64,000 nt of DNA. It comes from Escherichia coli. GTDB taxonomy: Bacteria; Pseudomonadota; Gammaproteobacteria; Enterobacterales; Enterobacteriaceae. Under the pieces are notes generated by a model. It did not search any database. It had not been told where the DNA came from and was given only the letters and a program-made list of their open reading frames with translations. Positions 6,026 to 64,000 of this stretch are shown one piece after another (positions within the stretch are counted from its first letter, which is position 1; every line of letters starts with the position of its first letter). The DNA lies in the NCBI RefSeq assembly GCF_046105845.1, contig NZ_CP151004.1; one strand, written 5' to 3'. The position numbers were made by a program, and so were the translations under genes.

Positions 6026-6787
6026 TTACCGCCACATCGCGTGTTTATCGCGATAGCAATCGACCCACATCGCCGTCGCACCACAAACGGCAACGGGCAT
6101 GATGAACAGATTAAGCAGAGGGATCATCGTAAACAGGCTGGTTAAAGCACCAAACTGCATATTGGTGATTTTGCGTGTGCGCAGGGCGGTGCGCATCTCT
6201 TTAAACGGCACTTTGTGGTTATCGAAGGGGTAATCGCAATACTGGATGGCTAACATCCAGGCGCTAAACAGGAACCACAGTACCGGCGCGACGGTTTGCC
6301 CAATACCAGGGATGAAGTAAAGAATTAGCAATACAATTGCGCGCGGCAGATACCAGGCAAATTTTTGCCATTCGCGTTTCATGATTCGCGGCACATCTTT
6401 CATGATACCGAAAATCCCGGTATCTGGCGGTGTAGCGCCAGTCAATCGTGCTTCCAGTTGTTCAGCCAATAAACCATTGAACGGAGCGGCAATCCAGTTA
6501 GCAATCGTTGAGAAGAAATAGCCAAACACTAACAGCACAGAGATGACAGCCAGAGGCCACAACAGATAGCTCAGCCATTGTAACCAGTCCGGAACATAAC
6601 TCATGAGAGTCGGGATCCAGACATCGAGTTGCGTAAAGAGCCACCAGAATGCGCCCCCCATCAACAAAATATTGACCAGCAGCGGTAAAATAACGAAACG
6701 CCGAATCCCAGGTTGCGAGACGAGCTTCCAGCCTTGCGCAAAATAGTAAAAACCGCTGCGTGGGGCAGATGTGAATGATGAAACCAT
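6026..6787 (-). CDS. cysZ: Sulfate transporter CysZ
   Basis: 253-aa multi-pass membrane ORF recognised as CysZ; synteny next to cysK. Confidence 0.9.
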
Positions 6788-24867: not shown

Positions 24868-26115
24868 ATGGCCATTAAAAAACGCAGTGCAACCGTTGTG
24901 CCTGGCGCATCCGGTGCGGCAGCGGCAGTTAAGAATCCGCAGGCCTCTAAAACCAGCTTCTGGGGTGAACTCCCGCAGCATGTGATGTCAGGGATTTCAC
25001 GCATGGTGCCGACCTTAATTATGGGCGGTGTGATCCTCGCTTTCAGCCAGCTGATTGCTTATAGCTGGCTTAAAATTCCTGCTGAGATCGGCATCATGGA
25101 TGCTCTTAATAGCGGGAAATTCTCCGGTTTCGACCTCTCCTTACTTAAATTTGCCTGGCTGTCGCAGTCCTTCGGCGGCGTGTTGTTTGGTTTCGCCATT
25201 CCGATGTTTGCTGCATTTGTGGCGAACTCTATAGGTGGCAAACTGGCGTTTCCGGCTGGTTTTATCGGCGGCTTGATGTCTACCCAGCCGACGCAACTGC
25301 TGAACTTCGATCCCAGCACTATGCAATGGGCGACCTCTTCGCCGGTGCCGTCCACCTTCATTGGTGCGCTGATTATTTCTATCGTTGCCGGTTACCTTGT
25401 GAAATGGATGAACCAGAAAATCCAGTTACCGGATTTCCTGTTAGCGTTCAAAACCACATTTTTGCTACCGATTCTTTCCGCCATTTTTGTCATGCTGGCG
25501 ATGTACTACGTCATCACCCCCTTTGGCGGCTGGATCAACGGCGGTATTCGTACCGTGCTGACTGCCGCAGGTGAGAAGGGCGCGCTGATGTACGCGATGG
25601 GGATCGCCGCGGCGACAGCAATCGACCTTGGTGGCCCGATCAACAAAGCCGCAGGTTTCGTTGCCTTCAGCTTTACCACGGACCACGTATTACCGGTCAC
25701 CGCACGTTCTATCGCTATCGTTATTCCGCCGATTGGTCTGGGTCTGGCGACCATTATTGACCGTCGTTTAACCGGCAAACGCCTGTTCAGTGCTCAGCTT
25801 TATCCGCAGGGTAAAACCGCCATGTTCCTGGCCTTTATGGGGATCAGTGAAGGTGCGATTCCGTTTGCACTGGAAAGCCCCATCACCGCCATTCCGTCGT
25901 ATATGGTCGGCGCGATTGTCGGCTCAACCGCCGCTGTCTGGCTGGGCGCAGTGCAATGGTTCCCGGAATCCGCTATCTGGGCATGGCCACTGGTCACTAA
26001 CCTCGGCGTCTACATGGCGGGGATCGCGCTGGGGGCAGTCATAACTGCGCTGATGGTGGTGTTCCTGCGTCTGATGATGTTCCACAAAGGTAAATTGTTA
26101 ATCGATAGCCTGTAA
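24868..26115 (+). CDS. fryC: PTS fructose-like enzyme IIC permease component
   Basis: 415-aa polytopic membrane ORF downstream of fryB. Confidence 0.85.
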
Positions 26116-61070: not shown

Positions 61071-61516
61071 TGGTTGCCTCCTTTGCGAAGCTGGGCAGCA
61101 AAGTCACGGATAGTGTCATCAAGGTCTGGGCACAACAGATGGTCAGCAAACATCTCTACCCCCTGCGCCCGTACTTCAGCCAGGAAAGCATCGGTGGTTG
61201 GGGTTTCAGTAACATCATCTTCCCATTCGCCAAACTCCTCACGACAAAAGTCATTAAATTCCTTCTCAGATTGCTTAAGCGAGGTATTTTCTGCAGCCAT
61301 CTTCGCGCATTTAGCCTCAAGGTTATCAATCGTGATTCCAGCAGAACGACACTCCCGCAACGCCGTTTCCAGTTTTGATTCAAGCTCACCGAACTTACGC
61401 ACCAGATATTCAGCGTTTGTTTCGTTAACCTTTAAATCTCGTGGAAAGCATTTACCTTTCAGAAAACCATCCATCTCAATTAGTGACATTAGTTTCATTT
61501 CTTCCCACTCCGCCAC
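61067..61516 (-). CDS. Lambdoid prophage ea-region protein (coiled-coil, acidic), hypothetical
   Basis: 149-aa ORF translationally coupled to the downstream 207-aa ORF. Confidence 0.45.
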
Positions 61517-61655
61517 ATAGCATTCAGATATTTGTTGTCATTAACAGAACCGAAACTATTTCTCTTAAGTAATTCCTCTCTCGATGGCATTGGCTTTACG
61601 CGTTGGCGAATAATCATTTCTGCCGGAAGAATGCCGGGATTGTATGCAAGTCCTC

Positions 61656-61946
61656 TCATGATTTACTCTCCACGAACTGGTCAACAGCCATGCTAAGTGA
61701 CACACCTAAAGTCTCGATATGTTGCTGAATATCCTGTAGCGTCTGCGCCTGAGATAACAGGATTTCACGGTTGCATAACTCTTTAGCCAGATGCTCAAAC
61801 TTGCTGTAATAACCGATACGACTTAGTGTTTCTTTGCCTGCATTCTCGCCTTCTTTGATAATTCCTCTTTCGCTAAGAATCAGATCGTGTTTGGTTCCGG
61901 TAATAACGTATTTTCCGAGGTCGATGTTTAGCTTCATTGTTTTCAT
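61656..61946 (-). CDS. Hypothetical prophage protein (96 aa; start moved to [13 protein letters not shown], which has a GAGGA RBS)
   Basis: The track ORF N-terminus overlaps the upstream gene and looks out-of-frame; internal ATG has a strong RBS. Confidence 0.4.
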
Positions 61947-61956
61947 TGTTAATTCC

Positions 61957-62253
61957 TCAGTCATTACTGATAGCGCCATAGCGTGAGCGGTAATTACGCA
62001 GGCGCGGGTCGATATATTCAGGGAAGTGGGTATATGTGGCTTTGCGGAATGGTCGGATTGATGTCTGGTAAATTCGCTCGCGTTCTTCTTTCTCTGCAAG
62101 CCATATACAATGGCGAAATTCCTTTTCCTCTTTCGTTTCCTGCGGTAGCGACATTATCCGGTCGTAGTTTTTCCTGAATTTATCCAGCACCTCCGATACG
62201 GAATTGCCGGAACAGCGGCGCGGGTCATCCGCACCATACAGAGGCGCTGGCAT
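61957..62253 (-). CDS. Hypothetical prophage protein (98 aa) just downstream of the Erf/SSB-like pair; Abc-like anti-RecBCD role is speculative
   Basis: Charged 98-aa ORF MPAPLYGADDPRRCSGNSVSEVLDKFRKNYDRIM...; occupies the position where P22-type operons carry abc genes. Confidence 0.35.
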   Translation of the reverse strand: MPAPLYGADDPRRCSGNSVSEVLDKFRKNYDRIMSLPQETKEEKEFRHCIWLAEKEERERIYQTSIRPFRKATYTHFPEYIDPRLRNYRSRYGAISND

Positions 62254-62276
62254 AATGGAATCCTTATGTTGCTAAT

Positions 62277-62660
62277 TTAGAAGGGAATTGAATCGTCGTA
62301 TTCAGGATGATTTTGATGATTGCTACTTTGTTGCTGTTGGCTGTTTCCTGAAGTTGCAAATCCAATCTTTGCATTCAGTAATTCAAGAGTGATTGATTGA
62401 CCATTTTGCCCCTGATAAACATCAACCCTGATGTTTTCTCCGGTAATTTCTACAATGCCACCTTCAACAAGAACACTACGGTAGTAATCCGCTTGCGCTC
62501 CCGGCTTGGCAAATACAACGGCGCTGTAGTTTGTCCATTCTTTCTTTTTTGTCTGGCGATCGTAATACTGAACGCCAGCACGGATGTTGAATCCGATATT
62601 TTCCCCGGCCTGAAACTCTCTTGCGGGCTTGTTTAGTCTTACAGTAATCGAATGTGCCAT
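62277..62660 (-). CDS. SSB-like single-strand DNA-binding protein with SSB-type acidic C-terminal tip (start taken at MAHSITVRLNK)
   Basis: 127-aa ORF ending ...QQQQSSNHQNHPEYDDSIPF (compare SSB C-terminus DDDIPF); ATG overlaps the erf stop (TAATG). Confidence 0.55.
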   Translation of the reverse strand: MAHSITVRLNKPAREFQAGENIGFNIRAGVQYYDRQTKKKEWTNYSAVVFAKPGAQADYYRSVLVEGGIVEITGENIRVDVYQGQNGQSITLELLNAKIGFATSGNSQQQQSSNHQNHPEYDDSIPF

Positions 62661-63265
62661 TAAGCAGCCGCTCCTTCTAATTCGTCTCGTCTGATGTTGT
62701 AAACGTCCTGCGCTTTGTGCTGCTCCGGTGTGCCTTCGAGCATCTTCCACGCTTTGGCGAACGCCTGTTTAAGCTCTTCTACGGTGTTTTTCTGCAATGC
62801 TGCGTCAGTGAATGCTTTTAGAACCTGTTCAGATGTAGGTGATGGTTTTGATTGCTTTGCTGCTGCGTTCTGCTGATGTTTATGCTCGTCGGTATCTGCA
62901 TCTTTCGCATCATCAATGCCGAACAAACCATTGAGGCAATACTTGCGTGCATAAGAGCTTGTAGCTCCAGTAACTTGTGCAGAATCCATTCCTTTCTTGC
63001 TTTCTTCCTCTCGTGCAAGGGCGGTTGCTGTATGACTGTTTTCGCCATCAGTAATAGTTGCTGTTGCTTTCACGTAATACCGATCACCAATCAACACAAC
63101 TTCATCGCTGATTGATAAAAACAGGCCATTCAGTAACGGCTTAACGCCTTCAAGAATGTCTTCGCAGCTTCTGTATTTATATTTACCGAATGAGTTGTAC
63201 TGATTCTTTGGCGCGTTCAGATTCTCCTGAATGGCTGCCAGTCTTGCGTAAAATTCTTTGCTCAT
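62660..63265 (-). CDS. erf: Erf-family single-strand annealing recombinase (start taken at MSKEFYARLAAIQ)
   Basis: Translation MSKEFYARLAAIQENLNAPKNQYNSFGKYKYRSCEDILEGVKPLL... recognised as phage P22 Erf-like. Confidence 0.8.
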   Translation of the reverse strand: MSKEFYARLAAIQENLNAPKNQYNSFGKYKYRSCEDILEGVKPLLNGLFLSISDEVVLIGDRYYVKATATITDGENSHTATALAREEESKKGMDSAQVTGATSSYARKYCLNGLFGIDDAKDADTDEHKHQQNAAAKQSKPSPTSEQVLKAFTDAALQKNTVEELKQAFAKAWKMLEGTPEQHKAQDVYNIRRDELEGAAA

Positions 63266-63275
63266 ATGTTTGTTC

Positions 63276-63446
63276 TCAGAATGGACACGGCCCAAGGAAA
63301 TAACGCTGATTTAATACTTCGACTCGGGACAAATTAAGGCATACCCGCATTCCTTCGCGGTCACCATTATGGCGATACCAGAGAGCTTTCTGCGTGTACA
63401 TGCGTCTCTGTAACTTGCTCTCCTTCACTGTGGTTGCAAGTGACAT
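63276..63446 (-). CDS. Small prophage ORF (56 aa) immediately upstream of erf (Arf-position), hypothetical
   Basis: ATG with AGGAG RBS 6 nt upstream; MSLATTVKESKLQRRMYTQKALWYRHNGDREGMRVCLNLSRVEVLNQRYFLGPCPF; stop 10 nt before the erf start. Confidence 0.4.
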   Translation of the reverse strand: MSLATTVKESKLQRRMYTQKALWYRHNGDREGMRVCLNLSRVEVLNQRYFLGPCPF

Positions 63447-63525
63447 GAATATCTCCTTCGTTACCGATTAAATCTTTCATCTGACGAATGAATTCTTCGT
63501 CTGACCAGTTATCTGTAAAACTCAT
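63367..63525 (-). CDS. Small prophage ORF (52 aa, acidic; kil-position), overlaps the 56-aa ORF in another frame
   Basis: MSFTDNWSDEEFIRQMKDLIGNEGDIHVTCNHSEGEQVTETHVHAESSLVSP; weak RBS spacing; at most one of the two overlapping frames is likely expressed. Confidence 0.25.
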   Translation of the reverse strand: MSFTDNWSDEEFIRQMKDLIGNEGDIHVTCNHSEGEQVTETHVHAESSLVSP

Positions 63526-63658
63526 TTCCTGCGATACCACGGAAGGTTGATAGCTGATTTCATCGCTTTATTTGCTTCAAGCCACATTTTGGAATCACCA
63601 ATAAATCTGGCTATTACTGCTTTGTTTTGTGCCGCACGAAGCATCTGGTGATTAATGG

Positions 63659-63793
63659 CTATTTCATTTCGCATAACGCCTCCAGTTGTTTCTTTGCTGC
63701 TCTGATTAATTGTTTAACTCGGCGTGATAATTCAGATTCGTGCGGGTAGAAAGCGGACATGACGCCGCTACCCGCGAGCTGAAAGTGCATCAT
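63659..63793 (-). CDS. Small cIII-like protein (43 aa; candidate FtsH-inhibitor type)
   Basis: ATG ATG with AAGGAG RBS; MMHFQLAGSGVMSAFYPHESELSRRVKQLIRAAKKQLEALCEMK, with an amphipathic helix resembling the lambda CIII core. Confidence 0.4.
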   Translation of the reverse strand: MMHFQLAGSGVMSAFYPHESELSRRVKQLIRAAKKQLEALCEMK

Positions 63794-63857
63794 GGGTAAC
63801 TCCTTATATTTGATTGCATAACGAAAACGCCTCAAGTGAAGCGTTATTGGTATGCAT

Positions 63858-63883
63858 ATAAAAAAGCCCTCACACTGGAGGGC
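63858..63883 (-). terminator. Rho-independent terminator in the prophage leftward operon (tL1-like position upstream of the cIII-like gene)
   Basis: Hairpin gccctc-acactg-gagggc followed on the minus strand by a T-run. Confidence 0.5.
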
Positions 63884-64000
63884 AAAGAAGATTTCCAATA
63901 ATCAGAACAAGTCGTCTCCTGTTTAGTTACGAGCGACATTGCTCCGTGTATTCACTCGTTGTAATGAATACACAGTGCAGTGTTTATTCTGTTGTTTATG

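Follow-up and report, generated by a model that had tools for sequence, protein, structure and literature searches.

Several small proteins encoded in the early-left (PL) operons of lambdoid phages have been described. CIII of phage lambda competitively inhibits FtsH, resulting in the stabilization of CII (PMC1838920), and an HK022 class of this protein has also been described (Kobiler et al. 2007, PMC1838920). Kil of lambda blocks FtsZ-ring assembly and cell division in a ZipA-dependent manner (PMC3961180). Arf of phage P22 stimulates Erf-dependent recombination, a function known only genetically (Poteete et al. 1991, cited in PMC12315714). The hkaM gene of phage HK620 was first called 'arf' on the basis of its position, a label that was later withdrawn (PMC5928155). 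Among the literature retrieved on HkaM and on gp42.1 of phage HK97, only Hutinet et al. 2018 was found to be relevant.

The early-left segment and its reference phages

The window is a stretch of 64,000 nucleotides of Escherichia coli DNA. Toward its end lies a block of small genes upstream of erf, with the following features.

63276-63883, minus strand (as are all features within it): the cIII–kil–ORF3–ORF4 block before erf, a lambdoid PL operon segment
63866..63883, minus strand: intrinsic terminator (GCCCTC-N6-GAGGGC followed by a T-run) identified by terminator scan, corresponding to tL2A of HK620
63826..63845, minus strand: second hairpin identified by terminator scan, corresponding to tL2B of HK620
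63659..63793, minus strand: cIII of the HK022 class, 44 aa (PF08134, E 2.1e-30; phrog_550, E 1.7e-13)
63522..63674, minus strand: kil, 50 aa (PF06301, E 1.7e-20; phrog_2055, E 1.2e-35)
63367..63525, minus strand: ORF3, 52 aa, acidic (phrog_2123, E 1e-41), corresponding to HK022 gp42.1, Sf6 gp30 and HK106_039
63453..63458, minus strand: Shine-Dalgarno sequence of ORF4, AAGGAG, lying inside ORF3 codons (N-E-G) and 6 nt before the ATG
63276..63446, minus strand: ORF4, 56 aa, basic (phrog_1723, E 9.4e-36), corresponding to HK97 gp42, HK022 gp42 and Sf6 gp29
62660..63265, minus strand: erf, single-strand annealing protein, 201 aa (PF04404, E 1.6e-44)
62277..62660, minus strand: phage SSB-like protein, 127 aa, corresponding to HK97 gp40 (phrog_44, E 1.8e-28) and ending in ...DDSIPF

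Comparison of the block with phage DNA using megablast showed 98.4% identity to HK106 over 801 of 801 nt and 98.1% identity to HK97, with matches in 333 phage records overall. It was present in 2,266 of 5,426 complete E. coli genomes (approximately 40%). The same ORFs are annotated in the records of HK97, HK106 and HK022, and the overlapping pair of ORF3 and ORF4 is found as gp42.1/gp42 in both HK97 and HK022 and as gp30/gp29 in Sf6. Because of this near-identity to reference phages, the block is very probably the standard cIII - kil - ORF3 - ORF4 (hkaM-type) - erf early-left (PL) segment of an HK97/HK106/HK022-type lambdoid prophage. Strong matches to curated or PHROG family models were obtained for three of the four small ORFs, and these matches, together with substitution patterns typical of constrained coding sequence in ORF4 and the 5' half of ORF3, indicate that the ORFs are more than chance open frames. 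The block of small genes is already known as an ordinary part of lambdoid early-left operons, indeed a textbook one, and its finding is in itself of little weight.

The original prediction, made from the sequence, had described small ORFs with ribosome-binding sites, an overlap of about 80 nt, a gap of 10 nt before erf and an upstream terminator, all of which were located; its 52-aa acidic ORF and its 56-aa ORF with a strong ribosome-binding site are ORF3 and ORF4. Its reading of the region upstream of erf as one of cIII, kil and recombination accessory genes agrees with the PL operon of the reference phages. The terminator, which it called tL1-like, is real and annotated in the HK97, HK106 and HK620 records, as a 'putative terminator' in the first two; the HK620 nomenclature, however, makes the two hairpins tL2A and tL2B. 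The terminator is near-identical across the window, HK97, HK106 and HK620, with a mosaic junction between lambda-type and HK022-type cIII situated just 3' of the second hairpin. A scan of positions 61500-64000 against Rfam at E<=1 returned no RNA family.

The cIII ORF encodes 44 aa from its first ATG and 43 aa from its second, with an AAGGAG sequence 7 nt upstream. Its product aligned with PF08134 over profile positions 1-37 of 37 at 104.7 bits (cutoff 25), and can on this basis be classed as an HK022-class CIII and a member of the FtsH-inhibitor family, as expected from the CIII-like 43-aa ORF of the original prediction. It is identical to CIII of HK022 and HK97 at 43 of 44 residues (98%), differing by a single E/A substitution at residue 42, and it shares with CIII of HK022, HK97 and H-19B the same length, the same place downstream of tL2-type hairpins and the overlap with kil. 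Its central helix aligns with the active 14-37 region of lambda CIII, and residues E19, S20, L22, L29, R31, K35 and L37 were invariant among CIII of the window, HK022, HK97, an Enterobacter phage, HK620 (lambda-type) and P22.

The 50-aa product of positions 63522..63674 matched PF06301 at 72.6 bits (cutoff 27.6), is 100% identical to Kil of both HK022 and HK97 and is labelled by PGAP as 'host cell division inhibitory peptide Kil'. By homology, this is the actual kil gene, encoding a member of the Kil division-inhibitor family. It is approximately 49% identical to the lambda-type Kil of HK620, and it was in the lambda-type class that the FtsZ/ZipA mechanism was worked out. This fourth ORF was missing from the list of the original prediction, so that the kil slot is occupied by it and not by the 52- or 56-aa ORF. 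Given the identities of CIII and Kil to those of HK022 and HK97, the statement that the ORFs could not be assigned to characterised proteins did not hold. Among the families it had named for HMM searches, CIII (PF08134) and Kil (PF06301, through the unlisted ORF) were matched, and Arf (PF17585) was not matched by the 52-aa ORF.

Once N-mediated antitermination has carried transcription past the tL2-type hairpins, the four small genes would be translated as a tightly packed unit. Such packing is suggested because kil shares 16 nt with cIII and 4 nt (ATGA) with ORF3, ORF4 possesses its own strong Shine-Dalgarno sequence, and the stop codon of ORF4 lies 1-14 nt before the start of the annealing-protein gene.

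ORF3 and its overlap with ORF4

ORF3 encodes an acidic protein with a pI of 4.4 and eleven D+E residues versus two K+R. Its start codon overlaps the stop codon of kil within an ATGA junction that is conserved, and its Shine-Dalgarno sequence is poor (AGGA, 1 nt from the ATG). The AlphaFold2 model comprises one helix (residues 9-21, pLDDT ~83) and a low-confidence tail. No family was found for it in the Pfam, NCBIfam and PADLOC libraries.

Like Arf of P22, ORF3 is an acidic peptide of approximately 50 aa encoded after kil and before erf, and [FW]SDEEFI is a motif common to both; an ORF3 homologue carries the name 'accessory recombination function protein' in one public record. However, their C-terminal halves are unrelated, and arf of P22 overlaps erf by 4 nt, whereas ORF3 is separated from erf by ORF4. 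Membership of the Pfam Phage_Arf family was considered and rejected, ORF3 giving no match to PF17585 at E<=10, while P22 Arf itself scored 121 bits. Comparison of ORF3 with an Arf alignment using hhalign gave a probability of 11% (E 0.0027) over 14 columns (WSDEEFIRQMKDLI versus FSDEEFIALISPEI), and a weak match to the PHROG Arf family was also obtained (E 0.011). ORF3 may be a short acidic peptide consisting of an Arf-like N-terminal helix and a disordered tail.

ORF3 and ORF4 overlap by exactly 80 nt, with ORF4 in the +1 frame relative to ORF3, an arrangement that might be taken for a dual-coding pair. Selection in each frame was examined using polymorphism among related loci. The first 80 IMG/VR loci had been selected on ORF4 protein identity, which biases such tests; they were dropped, and loci were re-sampled by a DNA pattern outside the tested region. 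The sequences compared are related and non-independent and the number of sites is small, and the following p values are to be read accordingly. Variable sites in the overlap numbered 11, 6 and 3 at ORF4 codon positions 3, 1 and 2, respectively. In the ORF4 frame, ten were synonymous and ten nonsynonymous (0.50 versus 0.21 expected, p=0.0034, non-independent sequences), and a similar excess was found in ORF4 downstream of the overlap (0.52 versus 0.23 expected, p=2e-5, non-independent sequences). In the ORF3 frame, the overlap showed no synonymous excess (two synonymous and eighteen nonsynonymous, 0.23 expected, p=0.96). The candidate dual-coding pair was rejected, as the synonymous excess in the overlap applies to the ORF4 frame only; the two overlapping frames of the original prediction exist, but selection there acts on ORF4 alone. 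Thus, a seeming pair of overlapping genes resolves to one constrained gene and a free-riding read-through tail.

Upstream of the overlap, the 5' 79 nt of ORF3 showed a synonymous fraction of 0.43 versus 0.16 expected (p=0.017, from few sites in related sequences). Judged from these substitution patterns, ORF3 is constrained only in its first ~26 codons, with its last 26 codons being read-through into the 5' end of ORF4 without selection of their own. A natural variant carries a C-to-T change at codon 37 that truncates ORF3 by a stop codon but leaves the ORF4 protein unaltered. In Serratia, the ORF3 frame is open for 77 nt into ORF4 with no ORF3 start there, so the open tail is a by-product of the ORF4 sequence.

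These observations also bear on whether ORF3 is a gene at all, as only cIII, kil and ORF4 might be expressed, with the 52-aa frame being open by chance. The Serratia frame, the codon-37 stop and the substitution pattern of the overlapping half all fit such a reading, as do the poor spacing of the Shine-Dalgarno sequence, the absence of both ORF3 and ORF4 from the PGAP annotation of the closest E. coli genome and the variable length of ORF3 in relatives (35, 44, 49, 52-58 and 61-66 aa). It is nonetheless improbable, given the synonymous enrichment in the 5' part, the conserved ATGA junction with kil, the predicted N-terminal helix and the conservation of the N-terminus. The first ~21 residues are kept in three different downstream contexts, and also in Enterobacter relatives of about 40-50% overall identity. 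Upstream of a RecT module, the N-terminal 18-21 aa are joined to a different acidic tail, and one 35-aa variant of this kind was found on at least 1,000 contigs. ORF3 is preferably regarded as a probable gene with a constrained N-terminal part.

That ORF3 and ORF4 form one gene, read as a single 82-83-aa product through a programmed +1 frameshift, is highly improbable. The HK97 record encodes gp42.1 as an 83-aa in-frame fusion, and several fusions of 81-82 aa exist in the protein database. However, the HK97 case is due to two extra bases (CATGTCACACGCGAG), located around record positions 24,880-24,900, that none of the other sequences among 2.9 million viral contigs carries; this 2-nt insertion, by which the two ORFs become fused, is probably an error in the HK97 reference record or a private mutation. 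The database fusions change frame at at least eight different positions rather than at one slippery site, and are accordingly attributed to random 1-nt deletions or sequencing errors, most cases being singletons from raw-read assemblies. Furthermore, direct reading of the overlap revealed neither an X_XXY_YYZ sequence nor a slippery motif of another kind, and ORF4 possesses its own strong Shine-Dalgarno sequence and ATG and occurs alone in other genera.

In Erwinia and Pantoea, the C-terminus of a 49-aa ORF situated upstream of ORF4 resembles the ORF3 motif by eye and lies at the same distance from the ORF4 ATG; no PHROG link or other statistical support for this resemblance was obtained.

ORF4 and the recombination module

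ORF4 encodes a basic protein (pI 10.0), with 10 nt separating its stop codon from the erf ATG at 63265. Comparison with HkaM of HK620 using hhalign gave a probability of 96.2% (E 2.4e-9), and HkaM (NP_112046) itself matched phrog_1723 (E 3.6e-33). Both are encoded immediately upstream of an annealing-protein gene and both end in PF. HkaM differs in its length of 62 aa, in being ~33% identical to ORF4 and in preceding Sak4 instead of Erf. At 90% identity, the family of ORF4 fell into 60 clusters, nearly every one with a length of exactly 56 aa. The genera named were Escherichia, Salmonella, Enterobacter, Serratia, Pantoea, Erwinia and Yersinia, with ORF4 occurring without ORF3 in the Salmonella, Serratia, Pantoea and Erwinia contexts. 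The synonymous excess and the family alignment indicate that ORF4 is a real conserved 56-aa gene of the HkaM family under purifying selection along its whole length.

A profile search of 1.84 billion representatives returned only 24 matches, mostly small (44-73 aa), none of which led to a larger annotated family; likewise, the Pfam, NCBIfam and PADLOC libraries contained no family for ORF4. The AlphaFold2 model is a helical hairpin (pLDDT 92.5), for which searches of PDB and BFVD gave generic two-helix matches only (E>0.1). The C-terminus has the form ...YFLGxxPF, with P55 and F56 invariant in an alignment of 36 sequences and a PF terminus in all 13 more distant representatives. This terminal Pro-Phe is kept while its codons vary synonymously. 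Two other candidate relationships were rejected. NQRYFL as a beta-clamp-binding motif (Qxx[LMF][FL]) was discarded as its Gln is not conserved in the family, and orf56 of P22, of the same length (171 nt), was found to be the homologue of HK97 gp38 and of window positions 61495-61659 instead of ORF4.

Across Enterobacterales, the gene directly downstream of members of the ORF4 family encodes Erf, Rad52_Rad22 or AAA_24/Sak4. The gap to this gene was 1-14 nt in every context examined, with one exception in which an HNH gene lies between, and in most relatives the stop codon of ORF4 forms the sequence TGAGG, which doubles as the Shine-Dalgarno sequence of the next gene. The annealing proteins that it accompanies belong to three unrelated Pfam families, from which we infer that ORF4 serves the recombination module as an accessory, and not the cIII/kil module. 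The HkaM family is narrow and strongly conserved, and its small proteins are linked to single-strand annealing proteins with three different folds.

An alternative is that ORF4 serves in host takeover or anti-defence, has no connection with recombination and is only situated at a mosaic boundary before the recombination module. In HK620, the sak4 and ssb pair by itself brought recombineering back to the level reached with the complete hkaM-containing module, so that HkaM is dispensable for oligonucleotide recombineering (PMC5928155), as would be expected of a factor of this kind. The nearby PL genes cIII, kil, ral and abc2 are host-directed, and a host target would fit a partner common to modules with unrelated annealing proteins. 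Against this, the spacing to the start of the annealing protein is fixed within 1-14 nt while the upstream neighbour varies (kil, cIII, KilR, a 49-aa ORF or a 120-aa ORF), and there is no match to PADLOC or other families; such a role is possible but considered unlikely.

As an accessory of the recombination module, ORF4 most likely would act via its invariant C-terminal tail (...YFLGxxPF-COOH), carried on a basic helical hairpin. The family ends in Pro-Phe-COOH, as do the tips of E. coli SSB (...DDDIPF) and SSB_HK620 (...NDYPPF), and the SSB encoded in the module ends in PF in five of nine modules examined, including that of the window (DDSIPF). The SSB_HK620 tail is required for binding to Sak4 (PMC5928155). 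The likeness is limited to the terminal Pro-Phe, as the typical acidic run is absent from the ORF4 tail; the tail of the E. coli branch (GPCPF) is not acidic, the residue before Pro is variable and ORF4 has no OB fold. It is speculative, with a small chance of being correct, that the ORF4 tail docks where the C-terminal tips of SSB (..IPF-COOH) dock. Candidate pockets would be those of the phage annealing protein or of host SSB-partner enzymes such as exonuclease I, RecQ or PriA, and docking there would modulate how SSB-coated ssDNA is passed on to the annealing protein, which would explain the company of annealing proteins of three unrelated folds. The complete proposal, in which ORF4/HkaM is an unrecognised recombination-module accessory whose SSB-tip-like tail fills SSB-tail pockets and so tunes the hand-over of ssDNA, is something of a long shot.

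The Pro-Phe tail provides a concrete and cheap hypothesis. Recombineering tools are built on pairs of phage annealing proteins and SSBs, and therefore an accessory factor of such pairs could be practically useful.

In public records, ORF4 and its relatives go by the unsupported names 'recombinase' or even 'cIII protein', and the 'recombinase' label given to HkaM/ORF4 by PHROG and RefSeq is unsupported for a 56-aa helical hairpin. PGAP often skips both ORF3 and ORF4.

Organization and origin of the small-gene block

Four small ORFs, not three, were identified on the minus strand between a terminator and erf:

63883-63866, minus strand: hairpin 1, GC-rich with a T-run, terminator-type
63845-63826, minus strand: hairpin 2
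63659-63793, minus strand: cIII, 44 aa, AAGGAG 7 nt upstream
63522-63674, minus strand: 50-aa ORF (kil), absent from the original prediction
63367-63525, minus strand: ORF3, 52 aa, pI 4.4
63276-63446, minus strand: ORF4, 56 aa, pI 10.0, AAGGAG 6 nt upstream

The ORFs are tightly packed: cIII shares 16 nt with the 50-aa ORF, which meets ORF3 at an ATGA common to both; ORF3 shares exactly 80 nt with ORF4, which is read in the +1 frame; and the ORF4 stop lies 10 nt from the erf ATG (63265). As these coordinates, junctions and hairpins were recovered, the original prediction was correct as an observation (ORF sizes, an overlap of about 80 nt, 10 nt to erf and an upstream terminator), save for the 50-aa ORF missing from its count of three; its interpretation held in outline and failed in details. 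One such detail is the terminator, which is present but had been called tL1-like. Both hairpins are nearly identical to the ‘putative terminator’ of HK97 and HK106 and to tL2A and tL2B of HK620, and it is therefore of the tL2 type in HK620 nomenclature. As the window stops at 64000, N, nutL and PL fall outside it.

The locus is a common one that has been described before. Positions 63200-64000 (801 bases) align over their full length with HK106 at 98.4% identity, with HK97 at 98.1% and with HK022 and H-19B at approximately 94%; matches were found in 333 phage records and in 2,266 of 5,426 complete E. coli genomes. Annotated equivalents in those phages are cIII, kil, erf and, after erf, an SSB-like gene and abc2; ORF3 and ORF4 correspond to gp42.1 and gp42 (HK97, HK022), HK106_039 and _038, and Sf6 gp30 and gp29.

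Comparison with the HK620 locus (L209, approximately 6205-6215) showed near-identity across both hairpins, then abrupt divergence (window approximately 63820-63826), beyond which the window cIII is HK022-type and that of HK620 lambda-type; from this alignment, a mosaic recombination junction is placed directly after the second hairpin. In the predicted RNA fold of 63780-63900 (minus strand; MFE -33.3 kcal/mol, z = -3.3), the cIII Shine-Dalgarno AAGGAG pairs with a CUUCUU stretch immediately before the terminator hairpin, so that both hairpins lie within the pairing. Translation of lambda cIII is controlled by RNA structure, which the predicted pairing recalls. A 31-aa ATG ORF (63844-63939, minus strand) running across the terminator hairpin is most likely a chance ORF, since it had no family match and no annotation in related phages. 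Downstream of abc2, a 54-aa ORF (61495-61659, minus strand) homologous to P22 orf56, HK97 gp38 and HK620 HkaI (DUF2737) is another conserved small PL gene, of a family without an assigned role.

Assignment of cIII, Kil and ORF3

These sequences had been described as unassignable to characterized proteins, which fails for two of the ORFs because of their Pfam matches and near or full identity to HK022/HK97 proteins. The 44-aa ORF, whose CIII-like character had been noted, matches the cIII family (PF08134) at 104.7 bits (cutoff 25) and is identical to HK022/HK97 CIII at 43 of 44 residues. By sequence it belongs to the ‘HK022 class’ of CIII, set beside the lambda class by Kobiler et al. 2007 (PMC1838920), who show competitive inhibition of FtsH by CIII. 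The 50-aa ORF matches Lambda_Kil (PF06301; 72.6 bits versus 27.6) and phrog_2055 (E 1e-35), with 100% identity to HK022/HK97 Kil; lambda Kil prevents FtsZ assembly, an effect that depends on ZipA (PMC3961180). Of the HMM searches that had been suggested, those for CIII and Kil were thus positive, the latter for the unlisted ORF, and that for Arf (PF17585) was negative for ORF3.

ORF3 resembles P22 Arf in size, charge and neighbourhood, yet on sequence comparison cannot be filed as a member of the Arf family, as matches to it were absent or weak. No match to Pfam Phage_Arf was obtained even at E ≤ 10 (P22 Arf scores 121 bits), the PHROG Arf family was matched at E 0.011, and profile-profile comparison aligned a 14-residue motif alone (WSDEEFIRQMKDLI / FSDEEFIALISPEI, 11% probability). 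ORF3 instead matches phrog_2123 (E 1e-41). Its N-terminal 18-21 residues are also found ahead of a RecT module, joined there to an acidic tail of different sequence (MLNQHKEQEKDDDSDSE); one 35-aa variant of this kind is present in at least 1,000 contigs.

In RecT-type modules (IMG/VR loci L100, L101, L103, L120 and L139), an ORF3-like 35-aa peptide overlaps by approximately 20 nt a 103-aa acidic protein of phrog_3486, a family without an assigned role, which precedes RecT; in L103 the ORF3-like gene is interrupted by a stop at codon 8. A 21-nt unit encoding EFIRQMK is present in two or three tandem copies in some ORF3 homologues of E. coli and Salmonella (proteins P0103 and P0104).

Selection on the overlapping frames

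IMG/VR was sampled with a 29-nt pattern placed inside the non-overlapping part of ORF3, so that the overlap and the remainder of ORF4 were not pre-selected. With HK97 and six mosaic variants diverging downstream left out, 99 sequences were kept (71 distinct ORF3-ORF4 sequences). Variable sites at codon positions 3/1/2 numbered 11/6/3 in the overlap in the ORF4 frame, the same sites giving 3/11/6 in the ORF3 frame, 19/9/8 in the ORF4-only part and 8/2/3 in the ORF3-only part. Each observed change was then classed as synonymous or not, against all possible single-base changes. In the ORF4 frame the synonymous fraction was 0.50 in the overlap (expected 0.21, p 0.0034) and 0.52 downstream of it (expected 0.23, p 2e-5); in the ORF3 frame it was 0.43 in the unique 5’ part (expected 0.16, p 0.017) and 0.10 (2/20) in the overlap (expected 0.23, p 0.96). 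ORF4 is therefore under constraint along its whole length, and constraint on ORF3 is limited to its first 26 or so codons. The reading in which ORF3, a putatively translated frame, is not a gene at all is unlikely.

Other features of ORF3 agree with constraint at its 5’ end only: its length in relatives varies (35, 44, 49, 52-58 and 61-66 aa), in one natural variant codon 37 has become a stop through a change that is synonymous in ORF4, and the AF2 model consists of a single helix (residues 9-21, pLDDT ~83) with a tail of low confidence. In a Serratia prophage without an ORF3 start, the equivalent frame is open 77 nt into ORF4, so the open tail is a by-product of the ORF4 sequence.

In the HK97 record (AF069529), gp42.1 is an 83-aa protein joining the ORF3 N-terminus to the ORF4 C-terminus, due to two extra bases, bracketed in CATGT(C)ACACGC(G)AG (HK97 locus L001, 3090-3100; window approximately 63395-63405). 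These are absent from HK106, the window and one E. coli genome. Since none of the other 2.9 million viral contigs carried the insertion, a sequencing error or a private mutation is its probable origin. Several 81-82-aa fusions were also present in the protein database. These do not show the pattern of a programmed shift: the frame switches at no fewer than eight separate positions, and the majority were seen once, in assemblies of raw reads, as expected of random 1-nt deletions or sequencing errors extended by gene callers. Production of an ORF3-ORF4 fusion by programmed frameshifting is highly improbable. One fusion variant (P0046), found in 36 contigs, may be a real mutant.

ORF4 and its Pro-Phe tail

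The remaining interest of the locus lies in the role of this HkaM-family gene and its Pro-Phe tail. Both ORF4 and the 62-aa HkaM of HK620 match phrog_1723 (E 9e-36 and 4e-33, respectively), and hhalign relates them at 96% probability. HkaM was first labelled ‘arf’ by position alone; Hutinet et al. 2018 (PMC5928155) showed that it has no homology to P22 Arf, and in their assay HK620 sak4 and ssb by themselves brought recombineering fully back to the level of the complete module. The family is narrow, with 60 clusters at 90% identity, nearly all exactly 56 aa and with named sources in Escherichia, Salmonella, Enterobacter, Serratia, Pantoea, Erwinia and Yersinia, and 24 representatives (mostly 44-73 aa) among 1.84 billion proteins. 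The AF2 model (pLDDT 92.5) is a two-helix hairpin (7-27, 30-49) with an extended C-terminal tail, for which fold searches returned nothing specific. Homologues are publicly labelled ‘recombinase’ (PHROG, RefSeq phage records) or, in phage ECP1, ‘cIII protein’, a label repeated in a note on an Erwinia phage. The PGAP annotation of the closest E. coli genome includes neither ORF3 nor ORF4 and names the true cIII a ‘hypothetical protein’.

In all contexts examined but one, ORF4 is followed after 1-14 nt by the gene of a single-strand annealing protein, which is Erf (PF04404), Rad52_Rad22-type (PF04098) or AAA_24/Sak4-type (PF13479); in the exception an HNH gene stands between ORF4 and erf. The upstream neighbour varies (kil and ORF3, cIII with a gap, KilR, a 49-aa ORF or a 120-aa ORF). 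In most relatives ORF4 ends in TGAGG directly ahead of the following start codon, an arrangement suggestive of coupled translation of the two genes; the corresponding TGAGAA of the window is a weaker match.

Conservation in ORF4 is highest at the C-terminus, N-x-x-[YF]-F-L-G-x-x-P-F. Its last two residues, Pro-Phe, are invariant and are specified by differing synonymous codons (CCA/CCG/CCT/CCC; TTC/TTT). The phage SSB also ends in Pro-Phe in five of nine modules examined:

Window: DDSIPF
Serratia: DDDIPF
Pantoea: DERIPF
Enterobacter phage: DDAPF
HK620: NDYPPF

The last six residues of SSB_HK620 are needed for Sak4 binding to SSB-coated ssDNA (Hutinet et al. 2018, PMC5928155). By analogy, the C-terminal end of ORF4 might resemble an SSB tip to the annealing protein or to SSB tip-binding host enzymes, which would explain the pairing of ORF4 with annealing proteins of unrelated folds. 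This reading is speculative and rather doubtful, and the tail in the E. coli branch, which unlike the SSB tip is not acidic, counts against it.

A homologous C-terminal segment of approximately 55 aa (L..FT..A....L...F..AW..L.G....KA..VY.IR..ELE) was found to be common to annealing proteins of the ERF, Rad52_Rad22 and AAA_24 families (Erf C-terminus, window 62660-62830; compared loci L005, 2380-2543, and L214, 3380-3558; IMG/VR Rad52-type proteins). The shorter Sak4 of HK620 and of an Enterobacter phage lacks this segment, which looks like a mobile C-terminal module.
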